Positions 1 through 3,000 of a stretch of DNA of 64,000 nt are shown piece after piece. A program made the position numbers. This stretch comes from Escherichia coli (GTDB taxonomy: Bacteria > Pseudomonadota > Gammaproteobacteria > Enterobacterales > Enterobacteriaceae), in the NCBI RefSeq assembly GCF_001677475.2, contig NZ_CP012498.1; one strand, written 5' to 3'. Numbering within the stretch: position 1 is the stretch's first letter; each line of letters opens with the position of its first letter.

Positions 1-3000
1 GCCGGGGAGATATTCCCCAGACGAGAGTGACGATGCTGACGATTGTAGAAAATCTCAATGTATTCCCGTATTACTGAGATGGCCTCATCCCGGCTCTTAA
101 AACGATAGTAGCTCAGACTTTCATTTTTCAGCGTTCTCCAGAAGCTTTCCATCGGAGCGTTGTCGTAACAGTTACCTTTACGCGACATTGATGTTTTCAG
201 ACCAAACTGCTCCTGTATGGCCCTGTAATCGTATGCGCAGTACTGTGAACCACGATCGGAGTGGTGGATTAGCCCGGCAGGTGGGCGCTGGTTCCTGAGC
301 GCCATAAACAGGGCTTTACCCGTCAACTCTTTCGTCATGCGCTCTCCCATGGCGTAACCGACAATTTCGCTCGTATACACATCTTTGACGCCAGCGATAT
401 ACGGCCATCCTTCCCGGGTGGCACCATAGGGGATGCGGACGATTTCCTGGACTGCTTTATTATGCCAGCCCGCATTGTTGGCGGTACATTTCAGGGCTGA
501 CTGCACCCAGCGATAATTTTATACGCCGCTCGTTATACCATCTGATGTAAGCATCCACTTGCTGCATGAACTTTTCTGGCGTGATGCCCGACCATTTACG
601 CCCATAATACATTTCCGTTTTCAGTCTGCCAAAAAAGCCTTCGCATGCGGCATTATCAGGTGAACATCCTTTACGGGACATTGAGCGAATAAGACCTGCT
701 GCATTCACTCTTTCCAGCCAGCCTGGCCAGCGATAATGCCCACCTCTGTCACTGTGTATCACCGGTCGTTCGCCAGCATTTAACGTTTCGACAGCGCTAT
801 CCAGCATAGTGTTGACCAGTTCAGCATCGGGGCGTGTACTGAGAGACCAGCTCACAACTTTTCCATCGAAGCAATCCACCACCGGTGACAGCCAGACTTT
901 ACCTGCAGGGAGCTGGAACTCCGTGATATCTGTCAGCCATTTCTGATTAGGTTGCTCCGCCTTAAAATCTCTGGCGATAAGGTTATCCGGAGCAGGTCCG
1001 ATTTCTCCGCAATATGAGCTGTAGCGGCGACGACGGTTACGGCTGACGACAAGCTGTTCCTCCACCATAAGTCTGCGTACAACCTTTTCTGATAACCGAT
1101 CCCCCTCATGCCTGAGCATCGCATGCAGGCGACGATAGCCATAACACTGGTAATTACTGTTAAAGATATCTGTCAGCATCGTACGTATCGTGGCGTATTT
1201 ATCACCGGCTTTCAGTGCAGCCCGGTGATAAAAATAACTGCTACGGGCAAGGCCCAGAACACGCAGTAATTCTGTCAGGGGATATGTTTGTCTCAGGGCA
1301 TCAGCTATCTTTGTTTTTTCTCTGTTGTTCATGCGTATTACCGTGAAGGAGATCGGTTATTGAGTGATTTCCTTCCATGAAAATACGCCCCCGGTACTGT
1401 ACAACAGTAAAAGGCCTCATAAATCTCCCGAATTACTGAAACCAGCAGAATATATTTTACGTGAGAATAAAAATTGCAATATGTGGTGGAACGTTCTGTA
1501 CAAGACAGGATGAAATAACTTGCTCAGATTAATTATTCTTATGTGGAACAATTACGTTTTCCGGGCGTATCCTTTTAACGACACACGGAATAAAAAAATC
1601 CCCACAAAAAGTGGGGGGGCTCCAAGAGAAACAACAATTACAGGTGCGTTGGTCATATTCGAATAACGATGAATCAGCTACGCTGAAACAAAAATTTAAC
1701 CGTACAGTCCACTGATTTCAATACTTAACTTAAGTTCCTGGCGTATAATTAATACGCATCAACAAACTCACACTAGACAAAACAACCATTCGATCAAACA
1801 GAAACAAGAATAACCATCTACACAATACTTTAAAGACATATACATTTACCCATTAACCCCATCATGTTTATACGATTATTTTTTTGCAAGACGGATCACA
1901 TTTTTAATAAAAACACAAAAAAACTTATCTCTTATCAGTTGATACGCAGAAACTATGGCAGAGTACATGGTCAATAAATAACTAAAAATACCCTGATCAA
2001 TATCACAAAGTTTTCACAATTAATATTAATCTATTGCAAAAAAGGAGTGGGTGATTTATAAGTGGAAATGTAACAACCTCCTCTATAGTTCGATTAGTTT
2101 AAAGTGCAACATACACTGAGCATTCATTTGTTCTCTTGCCCCTGTGTTACCAGGGGTTTTTTATACTCATAACAAACCGAAGAGTTATCAGTCACTATAA
2201 GCAAAGCACCAGTAAGACAATAAGTTAAAAAACAAACACCAGAAGACATGATTTGCATATTATTTCGCAACAGAAGCTTCCCCCCATTATTCTGGACATG
2301 AAAAAACAAAACTTGTAACATGCATTAATGCGATTCCGGTACTGTATGTCAGGGGTAATGATGTAAATGGTGGTGCCGGAATCGCATCTTTATTTTATTA
2401 TTTATTCCGGAAAATAAAAAAAAGCCCTCTGAGAGCATACAGAGGGGGTAAGGAATGATTCAGTCAGAATAATGAGTCCTTAGTATTTATATTCATTTAA
2501 TACAACATTATTCAACAAGATACAATATTAAACCCTAAGATTTGTGAGCTGAAACCTTAAAGCTGAATTCATTTGTATATCTGCCGCACTGAACATTGAG
2601 GCGAAGTACGGCAGATTTAATACGTTGCGTGCAACATTTTCACGTTATACAAACATCTGCGAAGTTATTTCTTCTTAACGTCCCCACTGCCAACGTTTTT
2701 TCTGACTTACTGACTCATAAATAATAGTGACAAACACCCGCTCTCACACCATTGTCAGTGCTGGTGATTCAGGACGGTAACCGGAGTTTACCCGAAAAAC
2801 GTAATCTATGGTCACTATCGTTTTTTAGTAACACCGGTATTGAAGATAAGCTGACAACCTGTATCTGTCGTGGTAAAGATGAAATCTGGTAAACCATGTC
2901 AGGACTGTTTTTTATCCCGTTCTCTTTTGATACTCACCACTACTGAACGTCATCGACAGAGGAGCAGTTCATGATTTTCTTTTCCGGGTTTCCGTTTATT

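Follow-up and report, generated by a model that had tools for sequence, protein, structure and literature searches.

A non-coding tract on a large Escherichia coli plasmid is a diverged copy of a Col156/ColE2-type backbone segment and probably encodes a group of candidate small RNAs

Col156-type plasmids of Escherichia coli, of which pIGJC156 (NC_009781) is one, are 5.1-5.2 kilobases (kb) in size and encode a ColE2-type Rep protein (PF03090 plus PriCT_1) together with a MobA/MobL relaxase of the MOBQ type. More than one fifth of the 5.2 kb is taken up by a segment without annotation, with the rep/cer side at one end and a small yibT-like gene at the other. Here we describe a relative of this segment in a 64,000-nucleotide (nt) stretch of E. 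coli DNA (contig NZ_CP012498.1 of assembly GCF_001677475.2), which we call the window. We found that the region from about 1490 to 2822 of the window is non-coding, and that 1575-2738 within it is a diverged copy of the 1.13-kb Col156/ColE2-type backbone segment. The plasmid that carries this copy is a large one of the IncF type, and insertion sequence (IS) debris has truncated the copy on the left.

The tract also resembles the genes of Hfq-type trans-acting small RNAs (sRNAs), with which it shares predicted stand-alone sigma-70 promoters, RNAs of 60-100 nt, U-tailed Rho-independent terminators, a single-stranded C/U-rich stretch, and a conserved 3' part combined with a differing 5' or middle part. 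It differs from them by clustering several units in a 1.1-kb gene-free plasmid segment. The best explanation of the whole is, in our judgement, a captured small-plasmid segment with three to four compact candidate sRNA units that does not regulate its neighbours, and we give this reading a probability of roughly 0.55. Units A, B and C appear to be strong cases for transcription units and unit D a weaker one, and the tract probably encodes a new family of plasmid sRNAs, candidates that belong to no known family. The features of the segment are as follows.

1575-2738, no strand: segment homologous to the Col156/ColE2-type non-coding region, with modules I-VI in the same order and spacing
1592-1721, minus strand: unit A, candidate sRNA of ~95 nt, with predicted promoter, hairpin, invariant stretch and terminator
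1735-2030, no strand: spacer between the divergent units A and B, AT-rich (29-32% GC), identity to Col156 0.25-0.57
2034-2162, plus strand: unit B, candidate sRNA of ~95 nt, with predicted promoter, conserved body and terminator
2166-2290, no strand: variable spacer between units B and C, identity 0.30-0.55
2293-2406, plus strand: unit C, with predicted promoter, long hairpin and U-rich tail
2416-2515, minus strand: unit D, the weaker case, with terminator and possible promoter
2547-2564, no strand: module V, small palindrome AGCTGAAACCTTAAAGCT, conserved in the window class, Col156 and pMG828-4
2604-2732, plus strand: module VI, conserved block holding GTTGCGTGCA...TTTTCACGTTATACA, CTGCGAAGTTATTTCTTCTTA and CATAAATAATAGTGACA

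Segment 1575-2738 aligned with positions 4602-3473 of a Col156-type plasmid (L005), and likewise with L009, at ~70% identity over 1.13 kb (E=1e-66 to 1e-75); over the small plasmids, pIGJC156 and pMG828-4 among them, identity is ~61-70%. The likeness extends to the modules, their order and orientation, the terminators and the promoter hexamers, while the window copy differs by its large IncF-type host, its IS-truncated left end and a degenerate module VI terminator. The segment is also held by 5.16-kb plasmids of sequence type 131 (ST131) and other E. coli. A further relative, the 7.5-kb plasmid pMG828-4 (NC_008489; L008), matches the tract in part; here a 2.4-kb cargo, encoding an FAD-dependent oxidoreductase and ArsR, occupies the spacer between units B and C. 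By its collinear homology, the tract belongs to the Col156/ColE2-type backbone as a fragment and not as a replicon: the Col156 rep, cer-like site, mob genes and yibT-like gene were not found in the window, and a whole-plasmid comparison matched the non-coding tract only. L005 and L006, in contrast, have the ColE2-type Rep, a cer-like site and the MOBQ relaxase.

Of 5426 complete E. coli genomes, 354 had relatives of the tract, at 526 places of which all but one (525) lie on plasmids; a phage genome collection yielded none. A pattern scan of 100,000 species genomes returned three contigs, all Escherichia-type plasmids and two of them likely contaminants. In a metagenome scan, 64 contigs had the modules in the same order and represented only the same three or four classes. 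The preliminary description of this DNA had named conservation in related plasmids as a check on its proposal, and had held that a lack of transcription and of conservation would speak against it; the relatives found here show that the tract is conserved.

The homology is distributed unevenly. Identity between the window and Col156 reaches 0.8-0.88 in islands (~1617-1676, 2052-2129, 2303-2381, 2422-2461, 2542-2581 and 2604-2695), and falls to 0.25-0.45 in the spacers between them, about the level of unrelated AT-rich DNA. In the 2166-2290 spacer, 57-78% of columns vary among the small plasmids. Further, the terminators are fixed in place and strand across three diverged classes, and the -35 and -10 hexamers of units A, B and C keep a spacing of 16-18 nt while the spacer sequence between them varies.

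We set the islands from the comparison of the window with one small plasmid and counted differences among the other small-plasmid variants, which avoids circularity. Among these small plasmids, 7.0% of columns differed in the islands vs 21.1% in the spacers (p=2e-11), and four further small-plasmid comparisons of islands with spacers gave p values from 5.6e-16 to 5.9e-5. Since the islands diverge about three times more slowly than the spacers among the small plasmids, they have been under purifying selection there. For the large-plasmid lineage, represented by the window, L003a and L004 at 8-10% divergence from one another, the islands and spacers did not differ significantly, with 8.6% vs 11.3% of columns differing (p=0.17). 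This suggests that the large-plasmid segment is a passenger under relaxed selection.

Unit A has a predicted promoter with a -35 hexamer TTGAAA at 1721-1716, a 17-nt spacer and a -10 hexamer TAAATT at 1698-1693; its transcription start is an estimate only. A hairpin at 1667-1652 is followed by the 24-nt stretch ACCUGUAAUUGUUGUUUCUCUUGG at 1645-1622, invariant in all classes, and then by a terminator with its U-run at 1616-1592. The hairpin stays paired despite its variation, which comprises a double change from AU to GC and a pair that alternates between U-G and U-A.

For unit B, the predicted -35 (TTGCAA, 2034-2039) and -10 (TATAAG, 2057-2062) are likewise separated by 17 nt. In five aligned variants the -35 reads TTGCAA, TTTCAA, TTGAAA or TAGAAA and the -10 reads TATAAG, TATAAA or TATTTT, at a spacing of 16-17 nt. 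The spacer and the 7 nt past the -10 are variable, and strict conservation sets in at G2070 (GUAACAACCUCC...) and continues to the terminator (2138-2157, U-run to 2162), which is present in all classes. Unit B has the highest identity to Col156 in the tract, 0.85-0.88. In pMG828-4, the promoter, the 3' part and the terminator of units A and B are retained, and it is the 5' or middle part that differs.

Unit C is of another build. Its predicted promoter (-35 TGGACA at 2293-2298, 17-nt spacer, -10 TAACAT at 2316-2321) was a scan hit in the window and in Col156 independently, and is abutted by a hairpin at 2328-2387 with a U-rich tail at 2388-2406. The fold has an energy of -31 kcal/mol (z=-5.3). 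Over 12 distinct variants, the 16-base-pair (bp) stem was 96.9% paired, vs 27-42% with the partners slid. It shows one compensatory AU<->GC pair and four pairs that alternate with G-U, and 15-16 of its 16 pairs are canonical on the plus strand, vs 13-15 on the minus strand. A promoter scan of 1200-3800 gave four hits, two of which coincide exactly with the predicted promoters of units A and C.

Unit D rests on a terminator at 2446-2425 with a U-run to 2416, just before which CAUUCCUUA is conserved. The terminator keeps its position and strand in all classes, and the changes in its stem are paired. The possible promoter (TTGAAT at 2515-2510, 18 nt, TATAAA at 2491-2486) was read from the alignment and is less convincing. 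The terminator stems of A, B and D each consist of 6-7 GC-rich bp followed by 6-8 U, conserved in three classes.

The remaining conserved block, module VI, folds no better than shuffled sequence. Its plus-strand terminator is strong in Col156 and pMG828-4 and degenerate in the window (2677-2701). This terminator closes module VI in the small plasmids, and the yibT-like gene, which the window does not have, follows directly downstream. We also noticed a mini open reading frame (ORF) on the minus strand of this module, reading MFV* in the window (2640-2660), MFLFV* in Col156 (L005, ~3545-3570) and MFLFVL* in pMG828-4 (L008, ~3470-3500). The indels between the classes are of +6 and +3 nt, in frame, and a Shine-Dalgarno-like AAGAAG/AAGGAG is present 14 nt upstream, a distance too great for a normal start.

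In the mechanism that we propose, each unit would be independently transcribed from a sigma-70 promoter into a structured RNA of 60-100 nt that ends at a Rho-independent terminator, and the RNAs would act in trans by base pairing. Each RNA would have a conserved C/U-rich stretch resembling an anti-Shine-Dalgarno sequence beside the terminator with its U-tail, and the folds predicted for A, B and D leave this stretch unpaired. Given this architecture, which is that of enterobacterial base-pairing sRNAs, we consider translational repression of host or helper-plasmid mRNAs at their ribosome-binding sites the most likely action, to the benefit of the small plasmid. The segment was presumably captured from a small plasmid by a large one and then eroded by IS elements on the large plasmids. 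As units A, B and C are intact in the window, they may still be transcribed, and thus expressed, from this copy.

About 17 large IncF plasmids from E. coli of bovine, food and human origin, for example pCFSAN004180G, carry copies that are 99% identical, and copies of 90-92% identity occur in a few further large plasmids; none of these records has an annotation there. The sequence class of the window copy is common to ~25 large plasmids and is separate from the Col156 class. Several of the large-plasmid copies are damaged. L004 lacks everything left of 1721, unit A included, and has a 17-nt deletion in an arm of the unit C hairpin; in L003a and L003b, the promoter of unit C no longer has its spacing; and one copy is split by an IS903B insertion. 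Homology to L003 and L004 runs to at least 2860-2900, and that to Col156 ends at ~2738. Co-integration of a Col156 replicon into an F plasmid is seen in pVR50B, and IncFIB/FII/Col156 plasmids are another case of Col156-F co-integration (PMC6981087).

Two smaller fragments were observed beside these copies. The ST-I enterotoxin plasmid pCFSAN004179G (L003) holds, at 3883-4253, a second, decayed partial copy comprising modules II-V at ~80% identity, 2 kb off its main copy. In pJKHS016_1 and pAST198_1 (L079 and L080), a lone right-hand fragment (2618-2824, 91-94% identity) lies by a plasmid-borne type VI secretion cluster (tssB, tssC).

The non-coding character of the tract is supported by several lines of evidence. 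Its GC content is 0.357 over 1336-2760 and 0.349 over 1575-2738, vs 0.476 for the window, and the former value is at the 2.7th percentile of all 1425-nt windows. The longest open frame has 68 codons vs 80±16 in shuffles, the ORFs listed in the tract are no longer than 65 aa, and the ten largest had no Pfam or NCBIfam match at E<=1. We found no 3-nt periodicity of substitutions between the tract and three relatives, and most indels (9/12 and 19/24) are out of frame. No ORF has its start, frame and stop all kept between the window class, Col156 and the other classes. The Prokaryotic Genome Annotation Pipeline (PGAP) annotated nothing in the tract in any of ~20 near-identical records.

Terminator-like sites in 1200-3800 numbered six vs 1.5±1.3 in shuffles. 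The scan recovered 2138-2157 on the plus strand and 2446-2425 on the minus strand, each with a T-run, as well as 1616-1600 on the minus strand. The preliminary description had reported an AT-rich tract at 1336-2760 with no credible ORF, flanked by an IS remnant and an inverted-repeat arm, and with orphan terminators at 2139-2162 (plus) and 2411-2447 (minus). Its composition and flanks were borne out, as were both terminators, to which the overlooked third one is to be added. "Orphan" was a misnomer, as each terminator closes a short conserved unit, and the extent has to be trimmed to ~1490-2822. The same description had raised the possibility of a small RNA, which is supported on comparative grounds by the terminated blocks, conserved although the plasmid classes are 30% diverged, by the conserved -35/-10 hexamers at a suitable distance before them and by the compensatory hairpin changes.

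We compared the tract with further known systems. A search of Rfam in 1300-2900 gave only chance-level matches (E 0.64-4.9), far below the gathering scores, and no match was found in the homologous part of L005 or L008. Unit C is like ColE2 RNAI, ColE1 RNAI, CopA, FinP and Sok in being a single long stem-loop of ~70 nt with a large conserved loop and an abutting promoter. However, unlike these antisense control RNAs, it has no overlapping sense gene or conserved ORF opposite, and on the Col156 map it lies far from rep, next to which a copy-control RNA would be expected. Since Rfam gave no match to support it, we discarded a ColE1-type RNAI/RNAII origin. Cer-type Xer sites with their Rcd RNA are also AT-rich non-coding small-plasmid regions that possibly encode a short RNA; a fuzzy search of 1300-2900 (XerC and XerD arms 6-8 bp apart, <=3 mismatches per arm) found no cer/Xer site. 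An unannotated XerC/XerD core, GGTACGTACAA-CGGGAG-TTATGGTAAAT, lies upstream of rep at 4983-5010 of L005, outside the homologous segment, and also at ~7159-7186 of L008.

Several observations weigh against the sRNA interpretation. The promoters of the units are consensus-like matches in AT-rich DNA, which are weak evidence alone, and promoter-like sites in 1200-3800 are not enriched overall (4 vs 8.4±3.0 expected). Covariation amounts to one double change per hairpin (A and C), probably one event each, and its shuffle control was borderline (5/500); the events are few because the family is phylogenetically shallow, with three or four known classes, all on Escherichia plasmids. Unit C has only a poor U-tail in both Col156 and pMG828-4. 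Its promoter, moreover, lacks conservation in the latter plasmid, in which unit C could simply terminate arsR. In 1-8000, no match at E<=1 was found to Rfam 15, including ColE1 RNAI, CopA, FinP, Sok and ptaRNA1, and in the literature searched on pIGJC156, pMG828-4, Col156 with sRNAs, and the conserved sequences themselves, we found no function described for the region. When the candidate seeds were scanned for RNA duplexes with the 64-kb window and with one Col156 plasmid, we obtained self-hits and weak matches only, and the best duplex, of the unit A seed with the antisense of module VI (-23 kcal/mol), is unconvincing.

Among the alternatives, the most serious is that the islands are cis-acting DNA or insulating terminators, perhaps protein-binding sites, which shield rep/cer and the mob genes from read-through and bracket a cargo slot; they would yield no functional RNA and would be inert relics in the window. 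There are indeed four or five strong terminators on alternating strands, and module VI and unit D have no convincing promoter. The two-gene cargo of pMG828-4 sits exactly in the spacer between modules II and III, and unit C, just downstream of arsR, would terminate that gene. However, a terminator needs only a hairpin and a T-run, yet the 60-70 nt upstream are the best-conserved parts of the tract. Insulation is also hard to reconcile with the invariant 24 nt of unit A, the 0.85-0.88 identity of unit B, and hexamers whose spacing is fixed while their spacers vary. We consider this explanation possible but improbable.

Another explanation is that the hairpins, chiefly that of unit C, are single-stranded DNA (ssDNA) signals of the single-strand initiation (ssi)/primosome type, which prime complementary-strand synthesis after mobilization or the lagging strand in ColE2-type replication. 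The unit C hairpin is very stable (16-24 bp) and tolerates G-T on the plus strand only, and the leading region of the window has another long ssDNA-type hairpin, so that elements of this type do exist on the plasmid. In MOBQ plasmids, the transferred strand is the complement of the mobA strand, which would be the strand of the unit C hairpin. Against this stands a promoter of the double-strand type, conserved in the window and Col156, directly upstream of the hairpin. The stem itself contains no -35/-10 boxes and is thus not Frpo-like, and the CTG at the top of the window stem is not conserved in Col156. Moreover, units A and B would go unexplained, since most of their conserved sequence is unstructured. 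On balance, we regard a priming role as unlikely.

The preliminary description had also offered a silenced regulatory region for the adjacent accessory genes, which would here mean an H-NS-type silenced regulatory or promoter region. At 35% GC, the tract is AT-rich DNA of the kind favoured by H-NS, and module VI, just upstream of the yibT-like gene in Col156, could be the leader of that gene. But the neighbours differ in every context: Col156 has rep/cer and the yibT-like gene there, and in large plasmids the place is taken by an adhesin-type operon and IS remnants of other kinds. In the window, IS debris lies to the left and the 3' end of a broken ORF to the right, and the yibT-like gene is absent. 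Because the genes beside the tract in other plasmids are unrelated to those in the window, a role in regulating its present neighbours is not supported, and silencing of this kind has very little in its favour.

The least probable explanation, that of a decayed coding gene or operon, unrecognised small proteins or a type I toxin-antitoxin pair, can draw on short hydrophobic ORFs in T-rich strands, on the in-frame indels of the module VI mini-ORF (MFV, MFLFV, MFLFVL; read by eye) and on a 55-aa ORF in Col156 called by some annotators, but a protein-coding gene or pseudogene is contradicted by the missing family matches (E<=1), the missing 3-nt periodicity, the mostly out-of-frame indels and a longest frame within the shuffle range, and we rejected the toxin-antitoxin and small-protein readings since, on comparison of the window class with Col156, none of the small ORFs is preserved in start, frame and stop.

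The surroundings of the segment in the window comprise the following features.

460-1332, minus strand: IS3-family transposase (orfB) remnant, the left boundary; a 290-aa ORF with rve/HTH_21 domains
1393-1490, plus strand: fragment of an IS481-family (ISKpn28-like) transposase gene, IS debris within the reported tract
2739-2822, no strand: linker to the inverted-repeat arm, common only to the large-plasmid copies
2823-3636, minus strand: inverted-repeat arm, the right boundary; holds a 196-aa ORF in broken form, in which no Pfam domain was found

PGAP labels the equivalent of 460-1332 an incomplete IS3 family transposase. The sequence at 1393-1490 is 85-94% identical at the DNA level to annotated IS481-family transposases in hundreds of plasmids. 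IS debris thus makes up the first ~155 nt of 1336-2760, and the real tract begins at ~1490. On the right, the arm at 2823-3636 pairs with 14057-14869, where the intact copy of the 196-aa ORF lies at 14084-14674; the 3' end of the broken copy points into the tract. The inverted repeat duplicates the end of a cluster consisting of a 236-aa ORF (12745-13455), an ORF with an Stv-adhesin domain (13511-13987) and the 196-aa ORF, and the region of the 196-aa gene, whose copy beside the tract is frame-broken, accompanies the tract in other large plasmids. In addition, IS3-family transposase segments at 429-1331 and 6959-7849, inverted and 97-98% identical, surround a 5.6-kb block with the tract, an arrangement that is composite-transposon-like or inversion-prone.

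Elsewhere in the window, a stretch of ~250 nt at 16286-16533 (also 10705-10736) folds as a long ssDNA hairpin (z=-5.7). The 52-bp inverted repeats around the pMG828-4 cargo (L008, 735-786 and 3062-3113) share 85-90% identity with its arms, and it may be an ssi/Frpo-like leading-region element that in small plasmids also marks the boundary of a cargo. At 32.8%, the GC content of the window is lowest, on a 1.4-kb scale, at ~9051-10592; this stretch overlaps an ORF at 9762-10592, whose match to HEPN_RiboL-PSP is sub-threshold (25.9 bits, with the cut-off at 28.4). The minus strand at 15490-16155 encodes a DUF6710 protein.

For the window, the captured-segment reading means that the tract is not junk and does not serve to regulate genes nearby; it would be a captured piece of small-plasmid backbone and a marker of the plasmid's mosaic history. 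Col156-type plasmids are among the commonest small plasmids of clinical E. coli, including ST131, and are regarded as cryptic. We speculate, more tentatively and at less than even odds, that the modules are an unrecognised plasmid sRNA family, a three- to four-gene island with differing 5' or middle parts. If so, Col156-type plasmids would carry this island in ~6% of completely sequenced E. coli, large virulence or resistance plasmids would capture it now and then, and its RNAs would reprogram host or helper-plasmid expression, for example the translation of particular mRNAs by anti-Shine-Dalgarno pairing. Should the units be expressed, the cryptic Col156 plasmids would gain a function and a route to the physiology of the host or helper plasmid, and a plasmid-specific sRNA family would have been overlooked by current annotation pipelines.

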